Source of the DNA: Patescibacteria group bacterium
Lineage (GTDB): Bacteria; Patescibacteriota; Minisyncoccia; Portnoybacterales; GWB1-42-6
Length of the DNA stretch: 64,000 bases
Direction: 5' to 3'
Assembly (NCBI GenBank): GCA_022709865.1
Contig: JAKLIA010000002.1
Location: 210,183 to 274,182 of the forward strand
The position numbers and the translations under genes were made by a program. The notes below the pieces were generated by a model, which was not told the DNA's origin, did not search any database, and was given only the letters and a program-made list of their open reading frames with translations. Positions 35,126-61,867 of this stretch are shown here, piece by piece (position 1 is the first letter of the stretch; every line of letters starts with the position of its first letter).

Positions 35126-36067
35126 TTATTTTTCTCTTATCGGCTTTAGTTCTTGGTCGCCGTAATGTTTAAGGTAATTCTTCCAAATACCCTCGCATTG
35201 CAAGGACAGGCGGCACTTCAAGCAACGCTCAGGTTTGGCCCGTCCAACCTGAGGCCGAGAGCTTTCTACGTCCAAATTGATAAAATCCGGAGCCAAGTGC
35301 TCGGTTCTAAATTTTTTTACCTCCTGCAACTCGCTTATCTGGTCCAGATAATCAACAAAATAGCAAAGCGGCACATAACGGATATGCCAATGAGGAGCTT
35401 TTCCCTTTTGGCCAATAGCCAAGCACTGGCGGATAAACGGCGCAGCTACCGAGATTTTTGGAACAAACTCATCAAAATTATCGTAAGCAGCGCCTTCGTT
35501 GCAATCAATAAAAATAAACTCTGAATTGCGAATGCCAAGTCCCCAGATCAATTTCCCTATTTTTGGCAGGCTTTTATAATTATATTTAACAATGGTGGTA
35601 TTGGAGCCAATAGCTTCCAACCCCAAAAGATTTTTCATATTGGCCAGCCCCGCCATTAACTGATCAAAGCTTCCCTCAGACTGTGTTAAAAAATCATGGA
35701 CTTTAGCGTTATGGCCATGGACAGAAAAGACAATATTGGTCAAACCAGCCGCCACAACTTTTTTAGCGTAATCAAGGTAAGAGAGCATCCGCCCATTAGT
35801 CGCTATCATTATAGTTTTAAATCCTAACTTTTTTGCCTCTTTTAACAGATCGATAAAATCTGGCCGAATGGTCATCTCTCCGCCGATAAACTCCAAATAA
35901 GTCGTCCCCCGCTTTTTGGCACCAGCCATCTCATCTAAGATCTGCTTGGTTGTCTTGTTCAATAATTCGCGCTTATTGGAATCGATGCAAAACTGGCAAT
36001 TATTATTGCAAGCATAGCCAACAATTATAACGGTTTTTTTAATTTTTATTGGCTGATCATTTTTCAT
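35126..36067 (-). CDS. Radical SAM protein, PqqE/anSME-like small paralog family (member 1)
   Basis: CNNNCQFC, GGEMTIRPDF, TNGR, the family motif HNAKVHDFLTQSEGSFDQLMAGLANMKN, and C-terminal CLKCRLSLQCEG (Cx2Cx5C). Confidence 0.75.
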   Translation of the reverse strand: MKNDQPIKIKKTVIIVGYACNNNCQFCIDSNKRELLNKTTKQILDEMAGAKKRGTTYLEFIGGEMTIRPDFIDLLKEAKKLGFKTIMIATNGRMLSYLDYAKKVVAAGLTNIVFSVHGHNAKVHDFLTQSEGSFDQLMAGLANMKNLLGLEAIGSNTTIVKYNYKSLPKIGKLIWGLGIRNSEFIFIDCNEGAAYDNFDEFVPKISVAAPFIRQCLAIGQKGKAPHWHIRYVPLCYFVDYLDQISELQEVKKFRTEHLAPDFINLDVESSRPQVGRAKPERCLKCRLSLQCEGIWKNYLKHYGDQELKPIREK

Positions 36068-36068
36068 T

Positions 36069-37295
36069 TTATTGGCTGAGCTTTATAAGTAAATTGAATA
36101 TCGGCTGGCCAAGGAAACAGGTGCTTATCGCCCCAGCAAATATCCAAACAGCAAAAGGGCAAACGCGGCAAACTCCTAACTCTTTTAAATTAACCTGGGC
36201 TGCCTTTTCTTTTATTTCATCAACCTGCTCCTGGCTTAAACCGCTGATGCTAAAATTATTTTCTCTCTCAAGCTTAAGCTGGCCTAAAGAAGAAACATCC
36301 ACCAACATCCCAGGCAATAATTCGGATATTTTGATATTCCGAACTTGGGTTCTTTTAATATAAACCTCTATCAACCACTGGAAAGACAGCAAGATAACCA
36401 TAAAAACAACTGTTATTTTAAGAGACGAATAGAATATCGGCAAAAAAGCTGCTCCTTGGGAATAAATGCCATAAATAAAAACTAAAATAAAAATAGCCAA
36501 AAGAGCGCGGAAAATCGGCTTCCGGCTAAAAAACTTGCTCCAACTTTTATAAAAAATGATCAAACCGGCAAACAAAAAAGCTTGCAGCAACATCGCATCA
36601 ATATTTAAATATTTGCTGGCCGGCGGCTGCAAAAAAACAAAAAATAAAATTATCGCTAAAGGAACCATCAGCATTTTGAGGCCTTCTAGCCAAAACTTTT
36701 TATCTTTTATTTTTAACCACAAGCCGCCAAAAACTTTTTGGCTTTTTTGGCGCGCCAAAAAAATTATCCCCTGCCCAGAAGCGATCTGCTGCCAAAGACT
36801 TTTAGCAAAAAAATAAATTGCGTTAAAAAATAAAAATAATAGAAAAACCGAAAAAATATTCACCAATAGGACTAAAGACGGAAAAACCGGAAAATAGGCC
36901 GCTTCGTAGAATGTCAAAGGCAACAAAAACGCGTTAACAATAAAAAGCTTGGCATCACCCGCCGCCCAAGCGCTAAACTTCCACATCAAAAAAGCGACCA
37001 CCGCCGAAACTAAAAGGTTCAACATAGTTTCGGCGATAAAAGACAGGTTAAGAGTATAAACAACAACTGGAACGCTATCGGGCAAATGAAGAATATTATA
37101 ATGAAAAAACAAGGAAGCCGGCCGGGCAATGAACCGCCAAATAAAAAAAAGGCTGAAAATGATCAAGCCCCAAACAACACCTAAGACTATCCATTTGTTC
37201 CTGATCTTACCAGACCTTATGTCTTCAAAACTGGCTATGCCATCGATCAGGAACAAGATCGGCAAAAAAATAATACTAAGAATTATGTTGGACAT
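36069..37295 (-). CDS. A24-family CpaA/TadV-like prepilin peptidase fused to a large polytopic membrane domain
   Basis: FEDIRSGKIRNKW (Flp-type peptidase D-I-R...I-x-N motif) and AAGDAKLF (GxGD-like second Asp); 408 aa versus ~160 aa for typical CpaA. Confidence 0.55.
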   Translation of the reverse strand: MSNIILSIIFLPILFLIDGIASFEDIRSGKIRNKWIVLGVVWGLIIFSLFFIWRFIARPASLFFHYNILHLPDSVPVVVYTLNLSFIAETMLNLLVSAVVAFLMWKFSAWAAGDAKLFIVNAFLLPLTFYEAAYFPVFPSLVLLVNIFSVFLLFLFFNAIYFFAKSLWQQIASGQGIIFLARQKSQKVFGGLWLKIKDKKFWLEGLKMLMVPLAIILFFVFLQPPASKYLNIDAMLLQAFLFAGLIIFYKSWSKFFSRKPIFRALLAIFILVFIYGIYSQGAAFLPIFYSSLKITVVFMVILLSFQWLIEVYIKRTQVRNIKISELLPGMLVDVSSLGQLKLERENNFSISGLSQEQVDEIKEKAAQVNLKELGVCRVCPFAVWIFAGAISTCFLGQPIFNLLIKLSQ

Positions 37296-37328
37296 TAAAA
37301 TAGTCTAAAATTGCGCGCGCCCAAGACA

Positions 37329-37793
37329 CTAGTCGCAAAGCGGAGAGATTTGGAAGTTGCTATTGCCCCAACCCCACCAACCAGCTGCTTGGCCAAGCGC
37401 ATCCCAGACCGTCACGCCGGCATAATATTTTTCTCCAGCCACCAGACTCTCGCTCTTTATTTCATAGCGAGTTTCAGCAGATTCTATTTTGTCCGTAGAA
37501 AAAACTACATCGGAAAAAGAGTTATTGAAATAAGCCGCCCGGCTGACTTCGATCTTAAAAGATTTTTGTTCCTCTGCGCAGTTTTCCCAAGAAAAACTCA
37601 ATTTAGCTTCTTTTGAAGCCTGGCAATCCGGCTGCTGGACTTTCAAAACGCACCCTTGCTGGCCATCCTGGCCTAAGGATTGTTCAGGGCCCATAGACTG
37701 GTCAGACTTAAAGAAAAAATAATAGACCAAAAAAGCCGTGATAGAAATGACCACTAGCATAATAACAAATAATTTTAGATAAAAATTGTTCAT
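37329..37793 (-). CDS. Hypothetical secreted/membrane-anchored protein
   Basis: 154 aa with an N-terminal TM helix and a Gln/Cys-containing extracellular part; no family assignment. Confidence 0.35.
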   Translation of the reverse strand: MNNFYLKLFVIMLVVISITAFLVYYFFFKSDQSMGPEQSLGQDGQQGCVLKVQQPDCQASKEAKLSFSWENCAEEQKSFKIEVSRAAYFNNSFSDVVFSTDKIESAETRYEIKSESLVAGEKYYAGVTVWDALGQAAGWWGWGNSNFQISPLCD

Positions 37794-37830
37794 AAAAATA
37801 TTAAAAAAATTAATTTATTTATAGTTTTAA

Positions 37831-38766
37831 TTACTTAATAATTTTTAAAATAGGTTGGTAACTGTTGCCGGAAAGAACTATCTTTTTTTTATCGATCTTT
37901 TTAATGGCAGCAAAGCCTTTTTTCCCTACATGCTTTGAATACCCTTTGTGGATGCCTACGCAATGTTCTTTCAGCTGGCACCCATGGCAAGACGGGAGGA
38001 ACTCAACCTCTTTATCCGGCAAAGTTTTCCATACAAAAGGCCAGAAAGCTTGATCAATAATGCAAAGCGGAAAATGATAAAACCTTATTTCTTTAAAGCC
38101 TTCCAATAAACTGGCCGTCTGGCTGATAAAAGGCGCAACTTCTTGATAATTAATTTTTATCTGGTCAATATTTTTAATCGCTTGCGCTTCTAACTCGTGA
38201 AAAATGACAATGACCCGGTCCGCCTCCGCAAATTTTTTCTGGATCAAACTTAAAGTTTTATAAATGCCCTGATAAGTCAGTCTATTCAAAACCGTCCTGA
38301 CGCCAACAATCTGCCCAACTCTTTTATATTTTAACAGATTCTCAAAACCGTTCAAGGTCTGCTCAAAACTGCCCCGGGCTTGCGTGACAGCATCATGCGT
38401 CTGATTGTTCGCCCCACAGAAAGAAACATCTGTTTCCAAATTGTCGCTAATCGCCAAAAACTTCTTGGCAAAATCGTTATAAGCAAATCGCCGGCCATTG
38501 GTTAAAAGCTTGATCCTCTGCTCGGGAAAATTATCTTTTAAATATTGCACTATATCTAAAAATCGCGGATGGAGAGTCGGTTCGCCGCCAGTCAAATATA
38601 AAGAATTAGCCTGAAGGATTTTTTTCCTGTCTTTTTCTATCCGCTTAATAAGCGAGTCGTAATCGTAGGCAAAGCTTCCATCCCAAGCTGGCCAAGGCCG
38701 ATCGGGATTTGTGCACATCAAGCAGGAGTTATTGCAAAGGTCCCAAACACAAATATCAAAGCTCAT
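37831..38766 (-). CDS. Radical SAM protein, small paralog family (member 2)
   Basis: CNNSCLMC, LTGGEPTLHP, TNGRR, HDAVTQARGSFEQTLNGFENL, and C-terminal CHGCQLKEHCVG. Confidence 0.75.
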   Translation of the reverse strand: MSFDICVWDLCNNSCLMCTNPDRPWPAWDGSFAYDYDSLIKRIEKDRKKILQANSLYLTGGEPTLHPRFLDIVQYLKDNFPEQRIKLLTNGRRFAYNDFAKKFLAISDNLETDVSFCGANNQTHDAVTQARGSFEQTLNGFENLLKYKRVGQIVGVRTVLNRLTYQGIYKTLSLIQKKFAEADRVIVIFHELEAQAIKNIDQIKINYQEVAPFISQTASLLEGFKEIRFYHFPLCIIDQAFWPFVWKTLPDKEVEFLPSCHGCQLKEHCVGIHKGYSKHVGKKGFAAIKKIDKKKIVLSGNSYQPILKIIK

Positions 38767-38776
38767 AATAAGAGAG

Positions 38777-39652
38777 TTAAAGTTTAAACTCTTTGGCGCC
38801 GTAAAGATTCAGATAATAAGGATGAATGCCAACGCATTGGCGAGTATGCGGGCATCGCCGGCAAAGAGCTATCCTAACTTTTTGCGGGCTTTCTTCCAAG
38901 CACGGAAAAGATAAATGGCGATATTTTTTTGGAAAGACGCATGGCGGATATTCAACAAATAAGAATCTGGCTGATTGACCATATTTTTTTGCTATGGCCA
39001 CCAAAAACGGCGCCACCGCGCTCATTTTAGCCACAATTTTTTTTGAACTTTTTATTTCCTCATTAAAAGGCAAGATGTGCCCAATATTGATCTCCTTGGC
39101 CCCCAACTTAATATAAAAATCAGCCATCGCCAATAATTGCTTGTAATTTTTTGCGGTGACCATCAAATTTATCACCACACTCACCGCTTTGTTTGGCAAA
39201 GCAAGAACATTTTTGATTCCTCGCACTGTTTGGTTAAAGCTTCCTTGGCTTTGCGTGTGCCAATCATGGAGCTTAGCGTTGTGCCCCGCGACCGTAATAA
39301 CGAACTGATTTAATCCGTTCTCTACTAATTTAACCGCTAGATTGCCGTAAGCTAGCATCCGGCCGTTAGTCGTTATCCCAATTTGCTTAAAGCCGTTCTC
39401 TTTCGCCCAAGAAACCAACTCCGGCAGATCTTTTCTTAGGGTTGGTTCCTGCCCCATAATATTAATAAAATCATATTTCTCCCTGATAATTTTTATTTCT
39501 TTTTTTAAGCTGGCTGTTTCTTTATTAAAAAACTTCTGGTCTTTTTCAAAACAAAAAATGCAATTGTTATTGCATAGACACCCGGCATAAACAAAAGGGC
39601 TTGTTCCCACTTCTCCTTGATAATAATCTCTTTTAACGCTTATTTTAGGCAT
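38777..39652 (-). CDS. Radical SAM protein, small paralog family (member 3)
   Basis: CNNNCIFC, TNGRM, HNAKLHDWHTQSQGSFNQTVRGIKNV, and C-terminal CRRCPHTRQCVG. Confidence 0.75.
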   Translation of the reverse strand: MPKISVKRDYYQGEVGTSPFVYAGCLCNNNCIFCFEKDQKFFNKETASLKKEIKIIREKYDFINIMGQEPTLRKDLPELVSWAKENGFKQIGITTNGRMLAYGNLAVKLVENGLNQFVITVAGHNAKLHDWHTQSQGSFNQTVRGIKNVLALPNKAVSVVINLMVTAKNYKQLLAMADFYIKLGAKEINIGHILPFNEEIKSSKKIVAKMSAVAPFLVAIAKKYGQSARFLFVEYPPCVFPKKYRHLSFPCLEESPQKVRIALCRRCPHTRQCVGIHPYYLNLYGAKEFKL

Positions 39653-40604
39653 GAACTTCTGGCTTAAAAAGATTTAGATCAATGTATGGTTTAGTAATTC
39701 CCTGACACCTATTAAATAATGAGCACTTTTTGCAAGTCGGCATTTTTTTTAATATCCGATAAGAAGCAACTGTTCCTTTTCCGCATTTACTTATATCAAT
39801 TTTATCTTTACTAAAATGTTTGTAGCCGCCACTAGCACCACTGTCAAAAAATGACAGATTTTTAGCGCCAACAGCCAAACACAACGGCAAATCGTAAAAA
39901 AATAACCGATCATTAAAATCACCGATCATCTCTGCTTCGCGCTTAAAAAAAGACCTTATTTTTTCAATATTCGGAACATTTTTTAAAGTCTTCTGGCTAT
40001 AGATTCCTTTGCAGCTTGGCAAACAAACAAGCGAAGCGTCAATCGGAAGGTCAAGTGTCAATAAAAACCTAAATAACTCTGATAAAAAATCCTCGTTTTG
40101 TTTTAAAAATAGCGTATGTATTTTTATTCTTTTAAATCCAAGCTTCTTTAAATTATCCAAGGCCTTAATTATTTTTTTAAAACTTCCTTTTTCCCCGGTA
40201 ATCGTATCGTGGATTTGCGCTTTATATCCGTAAAGTGGCACCTGAATAGATTCCACATTCCCCGCTAGCAAAACTTTTTTTGTAAAAACAATATCACTAA
40301 AAGCCAAGCAATTGCTCTGAATAAAAACCTTCGCTTGGGTTATTTTTTTTATTTCTTTTAAAAAATCTGCTAAATTAGAATACTCACCCGGGTCATTGCC
40401 AGAGAGAATAATTAAATCTGGTTCGCCGTTTTTATGGCAAAAAGAATCTAAATCAGAGAGTTGTTCTCTCGCTATTAAATCGGCTTCATTTTTATCAATA
40501 AACTTATGGACCTGACAAAAAACGCATCTCTGGCTACAACCGATGTTATGCAAATTTAAAACAATGGTTTTTAATCCCTTTTTTCTTACTATTTTATTTT
40601 TCAT
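39645..40604 (-). CDS. Radical SAM protein, small paralog family (member 4, divergent)
   Basis: CSQRCVFC, HDTITGEKGSFKKIIKALDNLKK, and C-terminal CKKCSLFNRCQG. Confidence 0.7.
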   Translation of the reverse strand: MKNKIVRKKGLKTIVLNLHNIGCSQRCVFCQVHKFIDKNEADLIAREQLSDLDSFCHKNGEPDLIILSGNDPGEYSNLADFLKEIKKITQAKVFIQSNCLAFSDIVFTKKVLLAGNVESIQVPLYGYKAQIHDTITGEKGSFKKIIKALDNLKKLGFKRIKIHTLFLKQNEDFLSELFRFLLTLDLPIDASLVCLPSCKGIYSQKTLKNVPNIEKIRSFFKREAEMIGDFNDRLFFYDLPLCLAVGAKNLSFFDSGASGGYKHFSKDKIDISKCGKGTVASYRILKKMPTCKKCSLFNRCQGITKPYIDLNLFKPEVHA

Positions 40605-41581
40605 GCCTGCTTCTCTTTAACTGGCTTCAGCTCCTCCAGCCCAAAAGCTTCCGCATAGCTCCGCCAGACACCATAACAAACTTTATCGTATTTGCATTTT
40701 CGGCAAACCGGCGACTTAATTTTTTTCCCTTTTCTAGATTCATCCAGCGATGTTTCAAACTCCGGCCCCACCAAAACAGTATCCAGCTGCCCCAAGTCAT
40801 TAATATATCTTTCCTGCCCGGGCACCAAGCAAGAAACCATATTATAAACAAAACAACCAACTTTTCCCTGGCTCATTTCATTGCTAATATCAATTGCCCG
40901 GCAGATATGCGGCGCCACTTCGCTCATCTTAGCCATAATATCCGTATTATTGGCCACATTTCCTTCGATCATGGTCATCGTAAAACGAAACTCTTCAACG
41001 TCAAAATTATTTAAAAAGAATTTGACCGTCTCTTCCAGGTGCCCATAATTTAATTTCATTAAGACGATGTTGATCTTAACTTTTTGCCCAAGCTCATTCA
41101 GGTTTTTTATCCCCTGGAAAGCTTGCTTATAGGTCCCGGGCACGCCCATTATCTTATCCGCCACATCTTCAAGATAAGAATGGAAAGATACCACAAAATT
41201 ATTTACACCGCTATCGATCAATTTTTTACAATAATCTTTGTAGGCATATATCCGGCCATTAGACTGAACTTCAATATGCTCGAGGCCCATCTTTTTAGCG
41301 TAAGCCACTAATTCCGGCAAGTCGCGGCGTAAATTAGGCTCGCCGCCAGAAAAAGCAAAGCCCCGGGCATTCATCTTTTTAGCCTTTTCTATATCTTTAA
41401 TGATTTCTTCGTGGGGCCTGACCGCGTGATAATCAGTGCTGCCCATGCTCCGCTGGATCTGCAAACCAACTGAACACATGATGCACTTGCAGTTGCATTT
41501 AAAAATAACTAGGCTTTCTATTTTGCCTGTCTGTTTTTGGCTTGATTTATCTTCTTGGTTTTTTTTCTTTAGCGCTACCAT
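40601..41581 (-). CDS. Radical SAM protein, small paralog family (member 5)
   Basis: CNCKCIMC, SGGEPNLRRDL, SNGR, GTYKQAFQGIKNLNE, and C-terminal CRKCKYDKVCYG. Confidence 0.75.
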   Translation of the reverse strand: MVALKKKNQEDKSSQKQTGKIESLVIFKCNCKCIMCSVGLQIQRSMGSTDYHAVRPHEEIIKDIEKAKKMNARGFAFSGGEPNLRRDLPELVAYAKKMGLEHIEVQSNGRIYAYKDYCKKLIDSGVNNFVVSFHSYLEDVADKIMGVPGTYKQAFQGIKNLNELGQKVKINIVLMKLNYGHLEETVKFFLNNFDVEEFRFTMTMIEGNVANNTDIMAKMSEVAPHICRAIDISNEMSQGKVGCFVYNMVSCLVPGQERYINDLGQLDTVLVGPEFETSLDESRKGKKIKSPVCRKCKYDKVCYGVWRSYAEAFGLEELKPVKEKQA

Positions 41582-41587
41582 AATATC

Positions 41588-42601: not shown

Positions 42602-44387
42602 TTCCCTCTTTTAATTCCATCCGGTAAGCCTTAAGGCCTCCCGGACTTTCATAAATAACCTCTTTTTTGGCCAAAATATCATTTATAAAACCGCACCCCT
42701 GGCCATTGCCCGCCTCTTCCGGCCGGCAACGATAATCGGCGATATAAGCAATACAAGAACTATTTTTAAACTCCTCCAAAAACAATCCTTTTGTTTCGTC
42801 ATTTATCAAGTCAACCGCTAATGTCCGCCGCTGGTTATCTTTAAAATAGTCATTGATCACCGTCATATAAAAACCGCCTATTACCAAGCATCCGTTTGGA
42901 ATATTATCAATAACTTTCCAATAAGACTGGAAAGGCGGAATCAAAGAAAAATCACCCGACTGTTTGGTGGCTCGAGCATCTTTAAAGAGGCTGCCAGGAA
43001 AATAGATTTTAGAAATCTCTCGCCAAGAAACTAGCCGGCCAGGAAAATCAGCAAAAATCGACTTCTGATTAGAAAAATTAAAAGTAAATATTACGTTTAA
43101 AAATATGGATAATAAAAATATTACCAAAAGATTTAAAGCAAGGAACCGGCGATGTTTTAAAGGATTTAATAAATAAAACCCGTAGCCAGCTATAATGGCA
43201 ATCGGCAAATGGAACATCAAGGTCCGCCGAACATAGTCAGTTGTCAGCGTTGCATTCCCATAAATATTTCCATCGAACATCAAGCTGTAAACCAGAAAGT
43301 AGGCCCCAAAAAATCCCCAAGGCAACCAATATTCTTTCTTTCTTTTCCAAAATAGGATTGCCAAGCCCGTTAGCCAAAAAACAGCGGAAGTCAAAAGATT
43401 GTAATGCCAAATATTATTGATGGCCGGAGAAATATTTAAGAACTGCAGTAAAAGCGCCTGGCCAGCAATAAGCATCGTTTTATAGGTTAAAGCAAAAAAT
43501 CCTATCTCTCCCCCCTGATAAGAGCTATAGGGATTATCGAATAAAAGCCACTGTAAAACCGGCAACTGCATGATCACAAACAGCCAAACAATGAACAATC
43601 CCCAAAAAATCGTTTTGAAATCTATCTGTTTGTTTTTTATTCCCTGCCACCAATTTTTAATTTCCGGCCATTTTAAAACAATAAAAAATAAAGCAAAAAA
43701 CGGCGCCAAGATATAACTTTCCTGCCGGACATAAATAGCATAGGAAAGGCTGGCGACACAGGCTAGCCAAGAAACCACTTTATTATTTTTAAGCGCCAGA
43801 ACAAAGAACAAAAAAGCCAGCCCGGCAAAAAAAAGTCCGGTTGGCCGCGATTCTCCGGTCTGGGAATTAATAATATTCAACGGAACCAGTGAAAAAGCCA
43901 GGGCTGCATATAAAGAAGCCTCTTCTTTTTTGAAAATTAAGTAAGTCAACAGAAAAGCTAAAAGTATGGTTAAGCTACTCAAAAGCGCCGAAATAACCGA
44001 GGCATTCAAGCTATGAATGCCAAAAATTATATTGGCCAAAGCAATAATAAAAGGAGAGCCGGGCGGCGCCAACACTTGTTCAAAAAGCTGGCAATCCGCA
44101 TGGTTCCCTAAAGCACAAGATTTAACGAACTCACCGTGCAAAACCCAAAGATGGGCCGCCTCCTGCGCTACATAAGCATCAGTGTGGGTCCCGAGCCAAT
44201 ATTCCGCGTTGCGCACAAAAAATCCATATAAAAAAACTATCAGCAGCAAAAACCATATTTTTTTATCAATTTTCTTTATCTCTTCCCAAATGTTCTTTAA
44301 ATTAAAAAAACTCAAAAAAACCACTAAGGCAAAGTGCCCTAGCATAAAATAAAAAAGCCAACTAGAAAATATTTTATAAGACAACAT
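42591..44387 (-). CDS. Large polytopic membrane protein, GT-C fold glycosyltransferase-like (ArnT/PMT family-like)
   Basis: 598 aa with ~12 TM helices in the N-terminal 420 aa and a soluble C-terminal domain, an architecture typical of GT39/GT83 enzymes; no unambiguous motif. Confidence 0.35.
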   Translation of the reverse strand: MLSYKIFSSWLFYFMLGHFALVVFLSFFNLKNIWEEIKKIDKKIWFLLLIVFLYGFFVRNAEYWLGTHTDAYVAQEAAHLWVLHGEFVKSCALGNHADCQLFEQVLAPPGSPFIIALANIIFGIHSLNASVISALLSSLTILLAFLLTYLIFKKEEASLYAALAFSLVPLNIINSQTGESRPTGLFFAGLAFLFFVLALKNNKVVSWLACVASLSYAIYVRQESYILAPFFALFFIVLKWPEIKNWWQGIKNKQIDFKTIFWGLFIVWLFVIMQLPVLQWLLFDNPYSSYQGGEIGFFALTYKTMLIAGQALLLQFLNISPAINNIWHYNLLTSAVFWLTGLAILFWKRKKEYWLPWGFFGAYFLVYSLMFDGNIYGNATLTTDYVRRTLMFHLPIAIIAGYGFYLLNPLKHRRFLALNLLVIFLLSIFLNVIFTFNFSNQKSIFADFPGRLVSWREISKIYFPGSLFKDARATKQSGDFSLIPPFQSYWKVIDNIPNGCLVIGGFYMTVINDYFKDNQRRTLAVDLINDETKGLFLEEFKNSSCIAYIADYRCRPEEAGNGQGCGFINDILAKKEVIYESPGGLKAYRMELKEGIAK

Positions 44388-44412
44388 CCTTTAGGTATTA
44401 GCGCTCCTCGCC

Positions 44413-45351
44413 TTAAATAAAGTTAAAGAGATAACTTTTTATATCTTCACTGTTCTCCCAGCTAAATAATTTCTTTTTATCCTTAAAAACGGTAAAGCCC
44501 TTGGCCGAAAAAACCAGCCTGTTCCCCTCTTTGATCTTTTCCTGGATAGACGCGACCTGGCTGCTATCTTTGGCCCCCTGAAACTCAGGATAATTCGTTT
44601 TAAAAAAGATAACCGCGGAATAACAGAGCTCCTGGCCAATTATTTTGCCATCAAAAATAAAGCCCTGCCTTTTATCCCAAGAAGCATAAAGGCCAGGCTG
44701 CGTCAGGTCGAAAAAGACCAAAAATGGATTTTTTAAGTGCTCGGTTAGCTTTAAGGAAAAATCTGGAGAGGCCTTTTTCACGGCCTTAAAGATCTTTTCT
44801 AAATAACTCTGGCTTTTTTTACAGCCAAAGGAACAAGGCATATGGAAGGACAAATAAAAATTAGACAGGCCATTCAGTTGATTATTAAATAAAAAACTTA
44901 TCTTAGACGGCAAGCTTTTAAAAACCTCTGCCTCTCCAAGCTTAATGTTATCCAAAGTATTCTGAATATATTTCTCCAGGCAACACTTAGGATAGCTTAA
45001 AAGATTGCCAAAATCGCGAACACTATCCACCACCTCGTTAAAAGATTTTTTCTGGTCAATGATCTTAAAGGATGGGTCGGCTAATTTAGCTTTTTGAGCC
45101 AGGGCTTTATCTTGAGAAATATAAAGGCTAAAAGTTTCGAACAATTTCTTGTTGCTGCTAATAAACTCCAATTTGTTCTCTTTTAGGATCTTTTTATATT
45201 TTTCTAGGTCCTCGTTATCGTGGTATTCCACGCGAGCCACCTTTTTTATCCCCTCCCGAACCGCTATTAAGTCGGCTGAAGCTGAAAGAAAATCACCGCC
45301 CCAAAAGTTTTCTATTTTTCCAACTTCAAATAATTTTTTATTTTCTGGCAT
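44413..45351 (-). CDS. Hypothetical protein (conserved Cys pairs CC...C..C)
   Basis: 312 aa; contains YPKCCLEKY and HMPCSFGC; no family recognised. Confidence 0.4.
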   Translation of the reverse strand: MPENKKLFEVGKIENFWGGDFLSASADLIAVREGIKKVARVEYHDNEDLEKYKKILKENKLEFISSNKKLFETFSLYISQDKALAQKAKLADPSFKIIDQKKSFNEVVDSVRDFGNLLSYPKCCLEKYIQNTLDNIKLGEAEVFKSLPSKISFLFNNQLNGLSNFYLSFHMPCSFGCKKSQSYLEKIFKAVKKASPDFSLKLTEHLKNPFLVFFDLTQPGLYASWDKRQGFIFDGKIIGQELCYSAVIFFKTNYPEFQGAKDSSQVASIQEKIKEGNRLVFSAKGFTVFKDKKKLFSWENSEDIKSYLFNFI

Positions 45352-46258
45352 ATTTTTTAGGGTTATTTTTTACCGGTTTAAACTCCGACCAGCCATAAAG
45401 CTCAACGTATTCTTTCCATGGCCCCTCGCATTCGTTGCCAAATTGGCATTGCTCGCATTCTTTTCTTCTTATTTTACCCTTGTTTAACCTGTATTGACCA
45501 TAGTCCTCCACCACAAACCCGGCATCATATATCCTGGTGGTAGGAATTATTTTTTCTGCAATATATTCTTCGTAGCCCCGCATCAAGCAATAAGGAATCG
45601 CTTCGGTCGTTACTTTTTTGCCGGCCTTAATGCCAACATCAAGACCCTTTTTAACATATGGCATAATTTTGCTGTTTCTTGGCACCAGCCAATCTTTATT
45701 TTTTTCCGCCGTGCCTAGAATATGGACAAAAGCAAATTGGAATTGATCAACACCCAAAGAGATTAAAAGCTTGGCTATCTCCGGCAAGAACTTGTAATTT
45801 TTCGAAGTTATCACCGTATTCGTTAAAACGTACTGATTTAACTTTTTCAAGTTCTTTATCCCGGCCACTGTTTGTTCAAAGCTCCCCGGCGCGTCGGTTA
45901 AAAGATCATGTATCTTGGCCTGATGGCCGTGCAGCGCCGGCGAGAACTGTGTGGCGCCAGCCTTAATAGTTTTGAGGCAAAAATCCAAATAAGCAAATCG
46001 CCGGCCATTGGATTGGATCTGTATTTGTTTAAAATCCAGGTCCTTGGCGATCTCCACTAAGCGCAAAAACTCTGGATGCAAAGTCGGTTCTCCGCCGGTA
46101 AAGACCACCTCTTCTTTGCCTTTATCTTTAGCTTCGATCAGGGCCGCCTTTATTTCCGCCACGCTTTTAGCCGGCAAAAAATCGCGCTTGCGACCCTGAA
46201 CGCAAAAAGCACACTGGTTATTGCAGTAAAATCCGACCTTGATATCTACCCGCTCCAT
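45338..46258 (-). CDS. Radical SAM protein, small paralog family (member 7)
   Basis: CNNQCAFC, TGGEPTLHPEF, SNGRR, HDLLTDAPGSFEQTVAGIKNLKK, and C-terminal CEQCQFGNECEG. Confidence 0.75.
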   Translation of the reverse strand: MERVDIKVGFYCNNQCAFCVQGRKRDFLPAKSVAEIKAALIEAKDKGKEEVVFTGGEPTLHPEFLRLVEIAKDLDFKQIQIQSNGRRFAYLDFCLKTIKAGATQFSPALHGHQAKIHDLLTDAPGSFEQTVAGIKNLKKLNQYVLTNTVITSKNYKFLPEIAKLLISLGVDQFQFAFVHILGTAEKNKDWLVPRNSKIMPYVKKGLDVGIKAGKKVTTEAIPYCLMRGYEEYIAEKIIPTTRIYDAGFVVEDYGQYRLNKGKIRRKECEQCQFGNECEGPWKEYVELYGWSEFKPVKNNPKKYARK

Positions 46259-46260
46259 AA

Positions 46261-46470
46261 TTATTTTATTTCATCGAACAAACGGTTTATTTCCTGCTTT
46301 ATGCCCGGTATTTCTTCGTAGGGCATACCGTTAACAAATAAAAAAGTTTCCAGCTCTTTGCCAGCAACTTTTTTCTCGTTAAAAAGAGTTATGGTGGCCA
46401 AAAATAACTCGTCCTTTTTTAGCTTTTTTATTTTTGACCAAAAATCTTCTTGTATATTTTTTTTCTTCAT
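46261..46470 (-). CDS. Small 69-aa protein inside the radical SAM array (candidate RRE/chaperone or substrate-related peptide)
   Basis: MKKKNIQEDFWSKIKKLKKDELFLATITLFNEKKVAGKELETFLFVNGMPYEEIPGIKQEINRLFDEIK; tightly packed between two radical SAM genes with 3-nt and 27-nt spacers. Confidence 0.35.
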   Translation of the reverse strand: MKKKNIQEDFWSKIKKLKKDELFLATITLFNEKKVAGKELETFLFVNGMPYEEIPGIKQEINRLFDEIK

Positions 46471-46496
46471 ATATTAAAATTATTTATTTAGTCCAA

Positions 46497-47834
46497 TTAT
46501 TTTTTCATCAAAGGGTCTCTCGCCCACCAATTACCATAGGTTATCTTAGCCCAATAGCGGCTACCACCGCAACACTTATTAACAAATCGGCATTGCTGGC
46601 ATTGCGCCGGCAAGGCCTTATTCAGCCTTATTTTCTTCATAAAAGAGCTCTGCCAAGCTTTTTTAATATTTAATGGATCGCCAATATTTTTATCAATAAA
46701 ATAATGAGGCTTTAAAAACCCCCGCGGGTCAACTACTAGCCGCCTGTGCCCCTCATCAAATAAAGCGCCGGCGCCAATCGCGTTAATTATGCTGCCTTCG
46801 CCCAAAACACAAAAAGGAATTGCGTTTGCCAAAGAAACCCAAACCCGGCTTTTTTTTCTAACAGCAACTATTTTCTTGGTCAAATATGCAATATTAGCTG
46901 GGCTTAGATCTTCCTTCCTTCCAGGTGAAGGAACCGGCCGATAAAACTCCCATTCTTTAATCGGCAATTTAGAGATTAGTTTTTCCAGCTTATTGAAGTT
47001 CAAAATATTGTCTTTAGTAGCCACCGTGCCGACCCGTAAAACCGGGATGCCTGCCTTAGCCAATAATTTTAAAGCAGTTTTTTTTCTGGCCAAACTTCCG
47101 CTGGCTCCAGTTATTTTATCCTCCCTCCAGTTTTCCCAGCTTTCGATTGGAATTAAAATATTGTCTACTATTCCCGCCATCTTGCTTGCTGCTATCTGGT
47201 TAACCATCTGGCCATTTGTGTTCAACCTGACTTCCATTTTCTTACTTTTAGCAAAGGTCATCAATTCAAAAATATCGCTTCTTAATAAAGGCTCCCCGCC
47301 TGTAAACCGCACTATTTTAATTCCCAGCCGAGAAATATGCCTTATAATATTTTTCACATACTCAGTTGTTAATCTGTTTTTAATTTGTCGGCCATGGCTG
47401 GCAAAAGAAACTTTATTAAAACAAAAACGACAGTTTAAGTTGCACCTCGACTCAATCTCTATCATTATTTCATCAGGCAAATCTGAAACCGGCTGCGCGT
47501 CAGCCGCGCCAAAAGACCTAAAATATCCGGCCGGAAAACCGCCGCAAACCAAAAAATACCGACAATTCTTGCATCTAGCAGCTTTTTCGCCTGAATATTT
47601 TTCATTAAACAAAATATGGTCCCGAGAATTACTATTAACAGCGCAATAAGGAAAGTTTTTTAGCCAAATCTCGCGCTGACTATTCTCCAAATCCAACATT
47701 TTATAAGTTTCCGGCTCTATTTCAGAAAACCGGAATAATCCGACGGGCACTATATATGCCCGGCCTTCTTTTAAGCGTTTAAGCGCCTCAAAAGATTTTT
47801 TATAAGTTTTTTTTGAAAGGCCTAATTCCATCAC
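46497..47834 (-). CDS. Radical SAM protein with Cys-rich motifs on both sides of the core (445 aa)
   Basis: N-terminal CKNCRYFLVCGG, core CNLNCRFC with TGGEPLLRSD, and C-terminal SPASM-like CQQCRFVNKCCGG. Confidence 0.7.
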   Translation of the reverse strand: MMELGLSKKTYKKSFEALKRLKEGRAYIVPVGLFRFSEIEPETYKMLDLENSQREIWLKNFPYCAVNSNSRDHILFNEKYSGEKAARCKNCRYFLVCGGFPAGYFRSFGAADAQPVSDLPDEIMIEIESRCNLNCRFCFNKVSFASHGRQIKNRLTTEYVKNIIRHISRLGIKIVRFTGGEPLLRSDIFELMTFAKSKKMEVRLNTNGQMVNQIAASKMAGIVDNILIPIESWENWREDKITGASGSLARKKTALKLLAKAGIPVLRVGTVATKDNILNFNKLEKLISKLPIKEWEFYRPVPSPGRKEDLSPANIAYLTKKIVAVRKKSRVWVSLANAIPFCVLGEGSIINAIGAGALFDEGHRRLVVDPRGFLKPHYFIDKNIGDPLNIKKAWQSSFMKKIRLNKALPAQCQQCRFVNKCCGGSRYWAKITYGNWWARDPLMKK

Positions 47835-47875
47835 TCTTAATTTTTATAAAAATAAATTATCTAAAATAATGTTTT

Positions 47876-48958
47876 TCATTTATCTGATTTGTGTTTATTA
47901 ATTAGCTCAAAACAAATTTTTTCATATTTATCTGTTTCTTTTTCTATTGAAAAATTGTTTTTGGCAAATTCCCTAATCTTTTTTCTGTCTAATCTTTCAG
48001 CCTGATTAACTGCTTTAGCCATAGCGGTCGTATCCCCGTCTCTGACAATATAGCCGCTTACCTTGTCTTTTATCACCTCCCTAACTGCTGCCCGATCAAA
48101 AGCGATAACCGGGGTGCCGCACATCATTGATTCTATCATTACATTTCCGCATGGCTCGTTCCATTGGATTGGAAAGAGTAAGGCCATAGCCCCCCTGTAT
48201 AATTCAACTCGAGTTTTAAAACCAGCCTCACCAACATATACTATTTTTTTATTATCTATATACGGCTTGACGAGCTCCGCAAAATAGAGCTGATTTGATT
48301 CGCTTACCCCGCCAGCAATAATGAGTTTTTTTTCTGTTTTAAGCGCGACTTTAATTGCTAAGTGTGTTCCCTTCTCCGGACAAATCCTACCGATAAAAAA
48401 TAAATAATCTTTTGCTTTGGCAGAAAAAGGGAAATCTTTTTCGTCTACGGCCGGATAAAGAGGCTCTAGGTACGGCAACCCCGGCATAGAGTTTTTTATA
48501 AATCTTGAACCCGGCAAAAAATAAACATTATTAAGCTTTTGCAGCCCGCTTTTAATATACGGGTATATGGCATCATGGGGATAACAAATTTGAGAAATTA
48601 TAGGGATATTTGATTGTTTAGAAAAAGGCAAAATCTCATAAAAAATATAATTAGTGCAATGGATCAAATCAAATTTTTTATCTTCCCCAGACGAAAAAAA
48701 ATCAGCATAAGAAAATAGGTCATAAAAACTAGTAATGCGCTCCTGCAGATTAGCGTATTTCTGCTTAGTAAAAGTCGGAAAAGGCGAAATCTCCCTAACT
48801 TTTACTCCCTTGATTTTTGATCCGGGCGCAGCATAAAGGGTTATATCGTGGCCCCTCTTAATTAGCTCCTGAATTAAATAATTGGTGGCCCACTCTATCC
48901 CGCCAGTTCTTGGCGGCGGGACAACGCTTCTTGACGAACAAAAAAAAGCTATTTTCAT
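47876..48958 (-). CDS. Glycosyltransferase family 4 (GT-B, retaining)
   Basis: EPCGNVMIESMMCGTPVIAFDRAAVREVI (EX7E motif), N-terminal GGIEWATNYL. Confidence 0.8.
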   Translation of the reverse strand: MKIAFFCSSRSVVPPPRTGGIEWATNYLIQELIKRGHDITLYAAPGSKIKGVKVREISPFPTFTKQKYANLQERITSFYDLFSYADFFSSGEDKKFDLIHCTNYIFYEILPFSKQSNIPIISQICYPHDAIYPYIKSGLQKLNNVYFLPGSRFIKNSMPGLPYLEPLYPAVDEKDFPFSAKAKDYLFFIGRICPEKGTHLAIKVALKTEKKLIIAGGVSESNQLYFAELVKPYIDNKKIVYVGEAGFKTRVELYRGAMALLFPIQWNEPCGNVMIESMMCGTPVIAFDRAAVREVIKDKVSGYIVRDGDTTAMAKAVNQAERLDRKKIREFAKNNFSIEKETDKYEKICFELINKHKSDK

Positions 48959-49824
48959 AATGTTTTTAGCATTGAATTATTATCATAAATCGTATATTTT
49001 TCAAGAATATAACATGATTTTTCTTTGCACACCTCCGGCTTGCTGTATAAAGAAAAGTTATTTTTTAAGATATTGCCCAAATAACCATTTTTGCTTCTAG
49101 ATCCCGGATTACAACGGTACGCCTCACCATAAGGCGATAAAAGAAAAAACTTATACCCGCAATCGCACATTTTCCCCTCAGTATTAAGCAGTTTTTTAAA
49201 GTTTATTGTTTTTTTAATCCCTCTATTCACCCGCCTTATTGCTTCCTGCTGGCTTTTTGAGTAATTATAATACTGATCATCCTTTGTCCTTAATGGCGCC
49301 ATTTTAAATAGAATATTAGCCTCCCTGAACATCCGGTAGACTTCTTCCAGATAATTTATTTTCTCAGGCAAAGCAACCGCACTAACAAAAAAATTGTTGA
49401 AGTTTGGATATATTTTTTTAAGACTTAATATTTTCTTAAGAAAAATTTCCGGATAGTCATATTCTAAATGCAAGGAAGCATGAAATAACACTAATTTCCC
49501 TTCGGTAATTTTAAAAAATTTTTCTATTTCTCTTGCTGGCGCCGAAAAATTAGTAACAACAGAGATTGTATATCCTGATTTAATTAGGCTTTTCACTATA
49601 TCAAAAAAATCCGGATGCAAAAAGGGCTCACCCCCGACAAGGTTAAAGTTCCATCCCCGAGGAATATGCCTTTGGAAGCCTTTTATAAAAAATTTATATT
49701 TTTCTACTTTATGGCCAGCATTCTTACTTTCATTGCTAACATAACAATAACCGCATCTATAATTACAGCTATCATTAATAACCCAATCTACCTTTCCTGG
49801 GATATTTTTTTTATTTACACCCAT
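48955..49824 (-). CDS. Radical SAM protein (second subfamily, tandem duplicate A)
   Basis: CNYRCGYC, VGGEPFLHPDF, and C-terminal CDCGYKF...C...C.C; the 3' ~110 nt are near-identical to the next gene. Confidence 0.7.
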   Translation of the reverse strand: MGVNKKNIPGKVDWVINDSCNYRCGYCYVSNESKNAGHKVEKYKFFIKGFQRHIPRGWNFNLVGGEPFLHPDFFDIVKSLIKSGYTISVVTNFSAPAREIEKFFKITEGKLVLFHASLHLEYDYPEIFLKKILSLKKIYPNFNNFFVSAVALPEKINYLEEVYRMFREANILFKMAPLRTKDDQYYNYSKSQQEAIRRVNRGIKKTINFKKLLNTEGKMCDCGYKFFLLSPYGEAYRCNPGSRSKNGYLGNILKNNFSLYSKPEVCKEKSCYILEKYTIYDNNSMLKTL

Positions 49825-49865
49825 ATATTTTTATAATCGCGGCAAAAAATAATAAAAAATTATTG

Positions 49866-50744
49866 CTATAAATATAATTCTTGGAATTGATCAATCGTAT
49901 ATTTTCCAAAACAATAACATGATTTTTCTTTGCACACCTCCGGCTTGCTGTATAAAGAAAAGTTATTTTTTAAGATATTGCCCAAATAACCATTTTTGCT
50001 TCTGACCGATGGGATACAACGAAAAGCTTTGCCGTCTGGATGCAAAAATACATACTTATACCCGCAATCGCACATTTTCCCCTTAGTATTTATTATCTTT
50101 TTAAGATTACTGGCCGACCTTATTGTTCTGCCTGATTTATAATTTATCTGCCTAATTATTTTCTGTTCATCTTGAGAATATTTATAAAATTGGTTTTTTT
50201 TATCTCTTAATAATAACAGCTTAAAAAACGGGATACCATTTTGCTGAAATTTTTCACTAATTTGCTTTAAATAATTCAGTTTCATAGGCAAGGCAACCGA
50301 ATAAATATTATAATTCTGAAAATCAGGGAAACTTTTTTTAAGTTCCAATATTTTCTTAATAAATGGATCTGGATCGGAATGCTCCAGATGGAGGCTAATA
50401 TTAAAAAAAACTAATCTCTTATTTGTTATTTTTAAAAATTTTTTTAAATCGCTTATCGGCGCAGAAAAATTAGTAAAAACAGAAATTGTATACCCCGCCT
50501 TAACCAGCTTACTTGTTATATTTAAAAAATCGGGGTGGGAAAATGGTTCCCCGCCCACAATATTAAAATTCCAGCCCCTTGGTATGTGTTTTAAAAAATT
50601 TTTTAAATATAAATCAAAAAATTTCATATTATAACCAGCCGATTTAATTGAATCATCAATACTGCAATAGCTACAGCGATAATTGCAGCCATCAGTAATT
50701 GACCACTCTACCATTCCTGGAGTATTTTTCTTATTTATTCTCAT
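49866..50744 (-). CDS. Radical SAM protein (second subfamily, tandem duplicate B)
   Basis: CNYRCSYC, VGGEPFSHPDF, and a C-terminal Cys cluster; paralog of 48955..49824. Confidence 0.7.
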   Translation of the reverse strand: MRINKKNTPGMVEWSITDGCNYRCSYCSIDDSIKSAGYNMKFFDLYLKNFLKHIPRGWNFNIVGGEPFSHPDFLNITSKLVKAGYTISVFTNFSAPISDLKKFLKITNKRLVFFNISLHLEHSDPDPFIKKILELKKSFPDFQNYNIYSVALPMKLNYLKQISEKFQQNGIPFFKLLLLRDKKNQFYKYSQDEQKIIRQINYKSGRTIRSASNLKKIINTKGKMCDCGYKYVFLHPDGKAFRCIPSVRSKNGYLGNILKNNFSLYSKPEVCKEKSCYCFGKYTIDQFQELYL

Positions 50745-50750
50745 AATTAG

Positions 50751-51428
50751 CTAATTGCACGTAATTAGTTTAGGCTTAGACTCGCTACCTTCAACGCAAA
50801 CTGCAATTTTATATCCCGGATAAAGATCATACACCCAAAAGCGCCAACTTTGTTTTTTAAATCTTGAATATAATTTAATTTTATTATTCCTAAGCTCAAA
50901 ATAAAAATTTTTTAACGAATAAGATAATCCCCTGCCTTTGGCCTTAATAAGGGATTCTTTGAGTGTCCAGATTTGATAAAAACTTTCTAGCTCTTTGCCT
51001 TTCTGCGAATGCACAAATTTCGTTTCTTTTTTATGGAAATAATCGCCAGCAATTTTAAGGTCGATCGGTCTCATTTCTTCAATATCAATCCCAACTCTGC
51101 TGTCAGCGATAGCCAGCACAACCCTTTTACCAGAATGCGATAAATTAAAATCGAAATTTTTATTTTTTGGATAGACTAACAATGGCCGCCCGTATTTATT
51201 TGTTTTAAAAACTATATCTTCGGCTTTAATTTTAAGTTGCGTCGCAATTATTTTTCTAGTTAAATATTTGCCGGCAATATATAAATTACGGCTATTTTTA
51301 TCCTTAAAAAAACCCGCCTTTTTTATTTCTTCCGCCGATAAAGCTTGCAATTTATTCTTATTTTTTTTGTCATTAATTTTATGAACAAATATTTTTAGCA
51401 TAAAATATCGGCTATTTAATTCAAACAA
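50751..51428 (-). CDS. Sfp-type 4'-phosphopantetheinyl transferase
   Basis: FNLSHSG, GIDIEEM and WTLKESLIKAKG motifs; 225 aa. Confidence 0.8.
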   Translation of the reverse strand: MFELNSRYFMLKIFVHKINDKKNKNKLQALSAEEIKKAGFFKDKNSRNLYIAGKYLTRKIIATQLKIKAEDIVFKTNKYGRPLLVYPKNKNFDFNLSHSGKRVVLAIADSRVGIDIEEMRPIDLKIAGDYFHKKETKFVHSQKGKELESFYQIWTLKESLIKAKGRGLSYSLKNFYFELRNNKIKLYSRFKKQSWRFWVYDLYPGYKIAVCVEGSESKPKLITCN

Positions 51429-52492: not shown

Positions 52493-52504
52493 AATAGATT
52501 CCGG

Positions 52505-61778: not shown

Positions 61779-61867
61779 TTCTTCCTCCTTTTATGTCTAT
61801 ATTTTTAAAAAAATTGAAGATATTAAACTATACCGCCTACCTAAACACTTGGCAAGCCTAAACTAGC

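Follow-up and report, generated by a model that had tools for sequence, protein, structure and literature searches.

An array of HxsC-like radical SAM genes with a FlaK-like protease in Candidatus Portnoybacteria, probably an expanded relative of the type 4 His-Xaa-Ser system

What do ten radical S-adenosylmethionine (rSAM) enzymes act on when their genes are packed one behind the other in a minimal genome? The question is raised by positions 35126-50744 of a 64-kb stretch of DNA, here called the window and analysed over its whole length, which stems from a metagenome-assembled genome of Candidatus Portnoybacteria (Patescibacteria/candidate phyla radiation, CPR). The interval is filled by 16 open reading frames (ORFs), all on the minus strand and with intergenic gaps of -14 to +41 nt, and ten of these contain the Radical_SAM domain PF04055 above its gathering score (39-96 bits, cut-off 29.5). 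All ten encoded proteins belong to the radical SAM superfamily. The remaining ORFs specify a family 4 glycosyltransferase (GT4), a PMT_2-type membrane glycosyltransferase (GT-C), a protein with a weak DUF483 match, a 69-aa protein (s69), a 154-aa immunoglobulin (Ig)-like protein (u154) and a 408-aa membrane protein (u408). An initial annotation, made from the sequence alone, had correctly noted ten co-directional, tightly packed rSAM genes as well as GT4 and GT-C, and had taken the ten for a single array of the PqqE/anSME SPASM type that does not correspond to any described system. The interval, however, consists of two unrelated cassettes (Table 1). Cassette A comprises R1, R2 and GT4 and forms part of a cassette that also encodes a polyketide synthase/nonribosomal peptide synthetase (PKS/NRPS), a DegT-type aminotransferase and a phosphopantetheinyl transferase (PPTase). 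Cassette B (35126-47834) has a core of R9 (HxsC-like), R10 (HxsC4-like) and u408, around which R4-R8, R3 with s69, the DUF483 protein and GT-C are arranged. On balance, cassette B probably represents an expanded form, specific to its lineage and related to the type 4 His-Xaa-Ser (HXS) system, that would serve the multi-step rSAM maturation of an exported protein.

The seven paralogs R4-R10 comprise about 300 residues each and share 20-36% pairwise protein identity. In their alignment the motif CX3CX2C is invariant and accompanied by one further cysteine (C235) and a C-terminal CX2CX5C; the GGEPT, TNGR and HD..GSF..GIKN blocks that had been described at the outset are likewise present and are degenerate in R7. 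Beyond the rSAM motif four cysteines only are conserved (C235, C282, C285 and C291), and this number would fit one fully ligated, twitch-like auxiliary cluster. Given these four cysteines, the lack of any match to the SPASM domain PF13186 among all ten rSAM proteins at E≤0.01, and HxsC (TIGR03977) or HxsC4 (NF038332) as the best NCBIfam models of all seven paralogs, the assignment to the PqqE/anSME SPASM type has to be abandoned. R9 scores 171.2 bits with HxsC (cut-off 267.9) in a match that spans positions 31-289 of the 292-position model, by which it is homologous to HxsC, yet outside the curated equivalog. Across about 87% of its length it shares 28-31% identity with genes of 365 plasmids that carry the annotation hxsC (one of them in the hxsA2-hxsB-hxsC locus of Acidiphilium pACRY02), and when 343 HxsC-like sequences were clustered by the unweighted pair group method with arithmetic mean on p-distances, canonical HxsC proved nearest to the R9 orthogroup. 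The HxsC4 model is matched by R4 (181 bits), R10 (156), R5 (144), R8 (136) and R6 (114); judged by these scores, which do not reach the cut-off of 500, the five proteins appear as distant relatives of HxsC4.

Further evidence for the assignment to the HXS system comes from related genomes. A scan of the GTDB species representatives with R10 yielded 241 matching genomes, and 79 loci were analysed by mapping each ORF to the window proteins and clustering the remaining ORFs de novo. One family that emerged from the unexplained ORFs consists of proteins with SHGSHGSH... repeats. In a locus from Omnitrophota (L051) four genes directly upstream of R10-R9-u408 exceed the curated cut-offs, namely HxsD (66.8 bits, cut-off 50), HxsD-like (68.6 bits, cut-off 41), HxsB (537 bits with TIGR03978, cut-off 370) and HxsA4 (74 bits, cut-off 55). 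Altogether, 23 related loci have genuine HxsD, HxsB and HxsA4 next to the core. In each of these 23, HxsA4 carries a conserved leader (...IKKNIKxFLxSEEGKISKK...) that is followed by a hydrophobic segment and then by the repeats. The R9 orthologs that are encoded beside true HxsA4, HxsB and HxsD reach 160-181 bits with TIGR03977, just as R9 of the window does, and the R10 orthologs of complete systems show the same sub-threshold scores as R10 of the window. Since the orthologs from complete systems score the same sub-threshold values, R9 and R10 of the window can be regarded as orthologous to working type 4 components. HxsA4 itself occurs in two sizes: besides short forms of 105-160 aa, some Patescibacteria (L017, L020, L037, L041 and L043) possess forms of about 500-555 aa, in which the repeats lead into a cysteine-rich junction (CCPF...) and then into a large additional domain at the C terminus, which is lacking in the short forms.

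The third member of the core, u408, is a protease. In its orthologs D25 and D114 (the latter within AGDAK) are invariant and a PFA motif is conserved. Peptidase_A24 is matched by 23 of 33 orthologs, one of which is named prepilin peptidase by NCBI; u408 of the window has no Pfam match, and a profile search against PDB sequences gave no significant match. Fold comparison, based on structure prediction for database homologs, recognised a FlaK-like fold in the family (PDB 3S0X), and u408 is accordingly classified as a FlaK-like GxGD aspartyl membrane protease of peptidase family A24. With the FlaK/TadV-type peptidases it shares the two invariant aspartates and the absence of an N-terminal methyltransferase domain; on the other hand, it is about 400 aa long, has extra helices and a C-terminal soluble insert, and is encoded inside an rSAM array rather than in a pilus or archaellum operon. 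Classification as a bacterial PilD-type prepilin peptidase was rejected, as the N-terminal A24_N_bact domain (PF06750) is matched neither by u408 nor by its orthologs. Because the window also carries a normal, canonical PilD (PF06750, E 4e-34), u408 represents a second, dedicated protease. Its role, we infer, is to clip the leader from the substrate that the rSAM enzymes have modified, which would parallel the N-terminal processing that E. coli HxsA undergoes in the canonical HXS system (PMC13128918). In HxsA4 the likely cleavage site would lie after the conserved glycine of SEEG. A resemblance of the HxsA4 leader to Flp/Tad-type prepilins was discarded, since Pfam Flp_Fap is not matched even at E≤10.

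The 79 loci are distributed over Patescibacteria, Omnitrophota, Elusimicrobiota, Margulisiibacteriota and one Woesearchaeote, and the core R10-R9-u408 is syntenic across these five groups. R10, present in all 79 loci by construction, is 50-75% identical among them, and 63-75% identical among the 120 best protein-database matches. R9 was found in 77 loci, u408 in 68 (several loci are truncated) and R4 in about 59 by best BLAST match or in 45 when the strict R4 orthogroup is counted. R5, R8, R6, the DUF483 protein, R3, s69, GT-C and a family 2 glycosyltransferase (GT2) are lineage-specific additions. The number of HxsC-like genes per locus has a median of 5 in both Patescibacteria and Elusimicrobiota with maxima of 9 and 7, respectively, so that the density of the array, which had initially been regarded as unusual, is the norm in these lineages. 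As arrays of five to nine copies are common in related loci, the seven copies of the window are at the high end but not unique. Each of them except R7 falls into its own orthogroup shared with other genomes, and the copies must therefore be old and individually maintained. The order found in the window, R5-R6-(R7)-R8-R9-small Ig-u408-R10, recurs in L003, L007, L006, L008 and L035 and is referred to as Portnoybacteria-type.

Several observations on individual loci may be added. In 20 Patescibacteria loci a conserved protein of about 70 aa (...YIxxYxSxEHxEVLGWV...), for which there is no family match and which is absent from the window, is encoded between the R10 and R9 orthologs (for instance L017, 10932-11144, and L037, 10992-11195). 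The Woesearchaeote locus (Candidatus Woesearchaeota, L078, JAGVXP010000050.1) contains R4-, R9- and R10-type rSAM genes, HxsD, HxsD-like, HxsB, HxsA4 and a u408-like ORF of 887 aa as called by a simple ORF finder; the gene content of this DPANN contig suggests that the system has been transferred between bacteria and archaea. Two Elusimicrobiota loci encode NifH-like ORFs with a GKGGIGKT/S P-loop less than 10 kb from the HxsC-like core (L061, 16140-18614, and L073, 10719-11747). Suites of up to 13 adjacent rSAM genes near nitrogenase paralogs have been reported from groundwater Elusimicrobia and were proposed to act in cofactor (tetrapyrrole) biosynthesis, without a link to HxsC (bioRxiv 10.1101/765248). 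In view of L061 and L073, these suites may overlap with the system described here. Our literature search found no publication describing the CPR rSAM arrays.

If cassette B is a relative of the type 4 HXS system, its products would cooperate as follows. In the cytoplasm a precursor destined for the membrane would receive several different radical modifications from the paralogous rSAM enzymes, each of which would carry the SAM cluster and one four-cysteine auxiliary cluster. The N-terminal leader of this precursor would then be removed by u408 at the membrane, and the exported product might in addition be glycosylated by GT-C. In the relatives the substrate would be the HxsA4 repeat protein with its ...FLxSEEGK... 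leader and subsequent transmembrane segment. The initial annotation had anticipated modification of a protein, and a protein is indeed what the closest characterised relatives act upon.

A number of findings speak against this interpretation. Every HxsC and HxsC4 score of the window proteins stays far under the curated cut-off, and HxsA, HxsB, HxsD and an HxsA4-type leader were not found in the 64-kb window. A six-frame regular expression search for at least three HxS repeats and hidden Markov models (HMMs) of the HxsA4 family and of its leader detected no HxsA in the window, an HMM built from 47 HxsB sequences of the loci gave generic rSAM matches of ≤46 bits, and the HxsD and HxsD-like HMMs matched no window ORF (E > 0.5). 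Neither s69 nor the family of about 70 aa can be put forward as an HxsD analogue: hhalign indicated no relation, with HxsD versus HxsD-like as control at 78.6% probability. Five other loci of the Portnoybacteria-type order also have no Hxs partners within 10 kb. The local candidate u154 is without a recognisable cleavable leader, the fold of R10 comes closest to those of BlsE, whose substrate is a nucleoside sugar, and GDGT-MAS, whose substrate is a lipid, and glycosyltransferases as well as PKS/NRPS genes adjoin the array. Because HxsA4, HxsB and HxsD are absent from the window, the substrate should be encoded elsewhere in the genome or be another envelope protein. None of the candidate substrates listed in the initial annotation was confirmed. 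In L003, L008, L015, L026, L030 and L035 the core encloses a small Ig protein of the u154 type, and HxsA4 is nearby in none of these loci. As such proteins occur inside the core only where HxsA4 is not nearby, u154 is the best local candidate, and we conjecture that it acts as substrate or partner. A further-reaching proposal, which we consider rather unlikely, is that the core and its satellite paralogs constitute an ancient, general machine for radical tailoring and leader clipping of envelope proteins, whose clients have been switched to Ig-like, pilus-associated surface proteins such as u154 in loci of the Portnoybacteria type. Such a machine would operate in ultra-small prokaryotes that depend on hosts (CPR, DPANN, Omnitrophota and Elusimicrobiota) with HxsA4 as only one client, and each paralog would stand for a different radical modification. 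Folded surface proteins would then be modified by rSAM enzymes at multiple sites in a way that forms a new class and may be connected with attachment to a host or with DNA-entry gating at the pilus.

The most serious alternative to an expanded type 4 HXS relative is a small-molecule pathway, in which the HxsC-like enzymes would have a sugar nucleotide, a lipid or a polyprenyl-linked glycan as their substrate, and GT4, GT2 and GT-C would assemble the product and transfer it to the surface; the whole region of 35-64 kb including PKS/NRPS, DegT and PPTase would then make one glycolipid or lipopeptide. We regard this as unlikely, even though the structure of R10 cannot be cited against it. The AlphaFold2 model (pLDDT 91) shows a standard rSAM fold, for which Foldseek returned BlsE as the best PDB match (E 8e-13), followed by GDGT-MAS, SuiB, viperin, SkfB and DesII. 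BlsE, GDGT-MAS, viperin and DesII are small-molecule enzymes, and BlsE is also a recurrent NCBIfam match of the rSAM proteins. On the other hand, the peptide maturases SuiB, SkfB and CteB are found at similar scores (E about 1e-9). Since R10 is closest to BlsE and GDGT-MAS, the structure does not favour a protein substrate, and in our reading the modelled fold does not distinguish between protein and small-molecule substrates. Furthermore, GT-C and GT2 recur in Patescibacteria arrays, PPTase and GT4 precede the array in L026 and L030, and a precursor peptide is not visible. What speaks against the pathway is the linkage of the core to the HxsA4/HxsB/HxsD protein-maturation module in 23 loci, the nature of the invariant non-rSAM core member, which is a protease and not a transferase, and the Omnitrophota loci, which consist of core and Hxs genes with no glycosyltransferase at all. 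In addition, L090 has cassette A by itself, and the guanine-plus-cytosine (GC) content of this cassette is different.

Scores for known cofactor and tRNA-modification families (MoaA, PqqE, QueE, NirJ/Ahb, MftC and others) all lie far under the NCBIfam cut-offs, with window rSAM proteins reaching ≤87 bits versus 231-325 for MoaA, ≤79 versus 381 for PqqE and ≤113 versus 500 for AhbD. As no protein attains a curated cut-off, these families are excluded, in line with the initial annotation. With the rSAM maturases of peptides that are made on ribosomes and modified after translation (RiPPs) and related enzymes (SuiB, SkfB, CteB, PqqE and anSME), the paralogs share the rSAM core and a putative C-terminal region for cysteine-ligated auxiliary clusters; they differ by having no PF13186 match and four auxiliary cysteines only. 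A PqqD-type domain or RiPP recognition element (RRE) is not reported for any window protein, and no short precursor peptide gene was found beside the array with its gaps of ≤41 nt, confirming the earlier impression that no precursor-like small ORF is present. Judged by its gene content, the window array would not qualify as an rSAM RiPP cluster, which combines an adjacent precursor with an RRE.

An overlapping explanation, differing from maturation of an HxsA4-like protein only in the client, assumes that in Patescibacteria the array matures pilus-associated or Ig-like surface proteins, such as adhesins linked to type IV pili or pilin-like proteins, and that u408 is a specialised prepilin-type peptidase. 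It is distinctly unlikely in our view. The array runs, after 47 nt, into a complete type IV pilus operon downstream of R10 (PilM, PilN, PilO, PilB, pilin, PilT, PilC and PilD), and u408 belongs to the prepilin/preflagellin peptidase family. An Ig_Rha78A_N-type protein is encoded inside or after the core in 23 of 48 Patescibacteria-type loci, and in 9 of them pilin-like genes come next. The window itself encodes a 646-aa secreted protein of the same Ig family as u154 (with TSP1, Ig_Rha78A_N and PKD domains) beside three to four minor-pilin-like genes, an arrangement that mirrors the order core - Ig protein - pilins of many related Patescibacteria loci. The loci from Elusimicrobiota and Omnitrophota, however, have the core without Ig or pilin genes, L003 and L007 contain the same array with no pilus genes nearby, the window possesses its own canonical PilD, and the inspected sequences of the Ig proteins are without a class III signal peptide. 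Moreover, we know of no rSAM modification of pilins. Antiphage defence, with the array maturing an envelope effector that blocks the entry of foreign DNA, is conceivable but not indicated and appears very improbable: canonical HxsABCD is experimentally antiphage at DNA entry (PMC13128918) and a canonical plasmid locus (L085) stands beside toxin-antitoxin and AAA ATPase genes, but the conservation of R10 across phyla and the stable synteny of the core are unusual for defence genes, HxsA, the effector, does not occur in the window, PADLOC defence models revealed a generic viperin-like N-terminal similarity only, and in the published survey 99.7% of the HXS systems belong to Pseudomonadota and almost all are four-gene units (PMC13128918).

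The claim that the array is not a described system can be upheld only in part. The HXS system has long been defined in TIGRFAMs and NCBIfam (HxsA, HxsB, HxsC and HxsD, TIGR03976-03979), HxsC is one of its members, and the core lies beside HxsA4, HxsB and HxsD in 23 loci; the expansion of the paralogs and the protease, on the other hand, are not captured by the models. The finding is therefore real and widespread, but not without relatives as had been proposed. The canonical four-gene system HxsABCD was shown in 2026 to be an antiphage system in which mature HxsA is exported and blocks the entry of phage DNA (PMC13128918). The seven paralogs are most similar to HxsC/HxsC4, and rSAM maturation combined with N-terminal processing of an exported protein, demonstrated for the canonical system, would be the feature that the window shares with it. 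The differences are considerable: the window contains seven HxsC-type genes instead of one, HxsA, HxsB and HxsD are missing, and the FlaK-like protease, GT-C, the DUF483 protein, R3 and s69 are added. The hosts of the related systems are Patescibacteria, Omnitrophota, Elusimicrobiota and DPANN instead of Pseudomonadota, and the core of the window type is strongly conserved, whereas HXS is patchy like a defence island. The existence of the models HxsA4 (NF038313), HxsC4 (NF038332) and HxsD-like (NF038315) shows that curators have recognised a fourth variety of the HXS system, on which our literature search found no publication. R4, R5, R6, R8 and R10 match HxsC4 best and the related loci hold HxsA4 and HxsD-like above the cut-offs, while the protease, the paralog expansion and the HxsA-less arrays lie outside every NCBIfam type 4 model.

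The only change reported so far for HxsC-type chemistry is one of +8 Da on an SHRSS motif. Arrays of five to nine diverged HxsC paralogs offer a natural panel for the function of this family. According to earlier reports, machinery of the HXS type is nearly confined to Pseudomonadota; our results show a structurally richer reservoir in uncultivated lineages with minimal genomes. Since such genomes keep at least 12 kb of rSAM genes, an important envelope function is implied. The dedicated FlaK-like protease suggests an undescribed route of leader removal for rSAM-modified proteins. The genes concerned are labelled merely as radical SAM protein or hypothetical today, and the orthogroups obtained here could become family models.

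Table 1. Genes of the rSAM interval (R1-R10, numbered against the coordinates) and further features of the window. E values refer to the Pfam model named.
Feature	Position	Strand	Description
R10	35126-36067	-	313 aa; HxsC4-like; PF04055 E 1.5e-19; NF038332 155.6 bits, full length
u408	36069-37295	-	408 aa; polytopic FlaK-like GxGD (A24-family) aspartyl membrane protease; C-terminal soluble insert
u154	37329-37793	-	154 aa; N-terminal hydrophobic anchor; Ig-like, Rha78A_N-type, PF25788 E 1.2e-7
R9	37831-38766	-	311 aa; paralog nearest to canonical HxsC
R8	38777-39652	-	291 aa; HxsC4-like; PF04055 E 8.7e-16; orthogroup in 27 loci
R7	39645-40604	-	319 aa; HxsC-like; PF04055 E 1.5e-15; TIGR03977 64.8 bits
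R6	40601-41581	-	326 aa; HxsC4-like; PF04055 E 3.4e-27; orthogroup in 11 loci
R5	41588-42601	-	337 aa; HxsC4-like; PF04055 E 4.8e-21; NF038332 match full length; orthogroup in 20 loci
GT-C	42591-44387	-	598 aa; membrane glycosyltransferase (PMT_2/ArnT-like); PF13231 E 3e-10
DUF483-like protein	44413-45351	-	312 aa; conserved Cys pairs; PF04467 E 1.2e-5, just above gathering score
R4	45338-46258	-	306 aa; HxsC4-like; PF04055 E 7.7e-23; orthogroup in 45 loci, 53-73% identity
s69	46261-46470	-	69 aa; conserved over whole length; no Cys
R3	46497-47834	-	445 aa; rSAM; N-terminal Cys-motif domain; C-terminal CX2CX5CC; PF04055 E 9.7e-23
GT4	47876-48958	-	PF00534 E 5.8e-24
R2	48955-49824	-	289 aa; rSAM, second type; PF04055 E 1.1e-9; GC 0.33
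R1	49866-50744	-	292 aa; rSAM, second type; PF04055 E 7.6e-11; GC 0.30
555-aa protein	12468-14135	-	C-terminal half UbiA-type prenyltransferase
rSAM/SPASM-like gene	14200-15330	-	sub-threshold MoaA-, NirJ2- and PqqE-type matches
rSAM/SPASM-like gene	15331-16659	-	sub-threshold MoaA-, NirJ2- and PqqE-type matches
Polyprenyl diphosphate synthase	16577-17674	-	
646-aa Ig-family protein with minor-pilin-like genes	20164-23757	-	TSP1, Ig_Rha78A_N, PKD
Apolipoprotein N-acyltransferase-like gene	24591-26087	+	LNT_N and CN_hydrolase
PilD	26492-27274		canonical

Among the genes of cassette B, R10 is the most conserved member of the core and R4 the second most conserved paralog. R7 is the most divergent copy and confined to this lineage; its sole ortholog resides in L006 (47% identity), it retains all cysteine motifs and its GC content is 0.33 compared with 0.41 for the window. 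Of the Patescibacteria loci, 11 contain a homolog of GT-C, frequently accompanied by a GT2, and 23 a homolog of the DUF483-like protein. The small protein s69 has homologs between R3 and R4 in L005, L011, L014 and L042, has no Pfam or NCBIfam match and is unrelated to HxsD (hhalign); it is probably a small accessory protein rather than a precursor peptide. R3 matches NirJ2, GeoRSP and the mycofactocin maturase over the full length but under the thresholds, its best models are AhbD and NirJ and not HxsB, and orthologs of 46-52% identity are present in about ten loci. At 25% identity (E about 1e-4), its N-terminal residues 33-118 (including CKNCRYFLVC) are similar to the cysteine domain at the C terminus of R5 and R6, as though the auxiliary-cluster domain had been relocated to the N-terminal end of a larger rSAM protein.

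R1 and R2 of cassette A are 57% identical to each other and both are unrelated to R4-R10 beyond the rSAM core. The R2 family is small (75 homologs), and the N-terminal part of R2 alone resembles viperin or STM4011, well under the cut-off. The upstream neighbours of the interval are genes for PPTase, the DegT-type aminotransferase and trans-acyltransferase-like PKS/NRPS. In L090 the order NRPS-DegT-rSAM-PPTase-R1-GT4-R2 (65%, 72% and 48% identity for the last three) is followed by unrelated transporter genes, and there is no HxsC array; in L089 an R2-like gene adjoins a DegT-like aminotransferase. The GC content is 0.30-0.38 in R1, R2, GT4, the genes for PPTase and DegT and the 3' part of the PKS gene. 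Since L090 possesses these genes without an HxsC array and the GC content is distinct, we treat R1, R2 and GT4 as members of a separate PKS/NRPS-linked pathway; cassette A would be a route to a small molecule or glycoconjugate that has its own inheritance and adjoins cassette B by chance. In the two Falkowbacteria loci L026 and L030 the HxsC array is likewise preceded by PPTase and GT4, and some functional coupling of the two cassettes is conceivable. A low-GC island of 0.30-0.35 extends from about 48900 to 55500 and includes R2, R1, PPTase, DegT and the 3' half of the gene for the 2044-aa PKS/NRPS, which fits a separate acquisition of cassette A. Near their 3' ends R1 and R2 share a stretch of 114 nt with 96% identity (48985-49098 and 49890-50003), suggesting recent gene conversion between the tandem genes.

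A collapsed assembly of a single gene, the artefact against which the initial annotation had cautioned, can be ruled out on account of the low protein identity of the seven paralogs, the lack of long DNA repeats among them in a DNA repeat comparison, and the independent Logan assembly, which has the same gene order as the window from GT4 to R9. Identical copies of the proteins of the region are also encoded by two contigs, one of 267 kb from JGI and one of 287 kb from NCBI. A promoter and terminator scan returned the same counts as shuffled sequence and was uninformative on operon structure. For window positions of about 57200-64000 the situation is different: in the JGI, ENA and NCBI assemblies, whatever of the PKS/NRPS region lies past about 57.2 kb resides on separate contigs of 6-7 kb, and the 267-kb JGI contig begins within the gene for the 2044-aa PKS/NRPS, so that the join at about 57.2 kb rests on another assembly. 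Repeated ketosynthase domains are the likely cause of these contig breaks.

Outside the interval, the sole sizeable plus-strand gene of the window is the apolipoprotein N-acyltransferase-like gene. Two further radical SAM/SPASM-like genes (14200-16659), which together with the ten of the interval bring the window to 12 rSAM genes, are flanked by the genes for a polyprenyl diphosphate synthase and the 555-aa protein with its prenyltransferase half, and the region 12468-17674 may represent an isoprenoid-lipid modification cluster.

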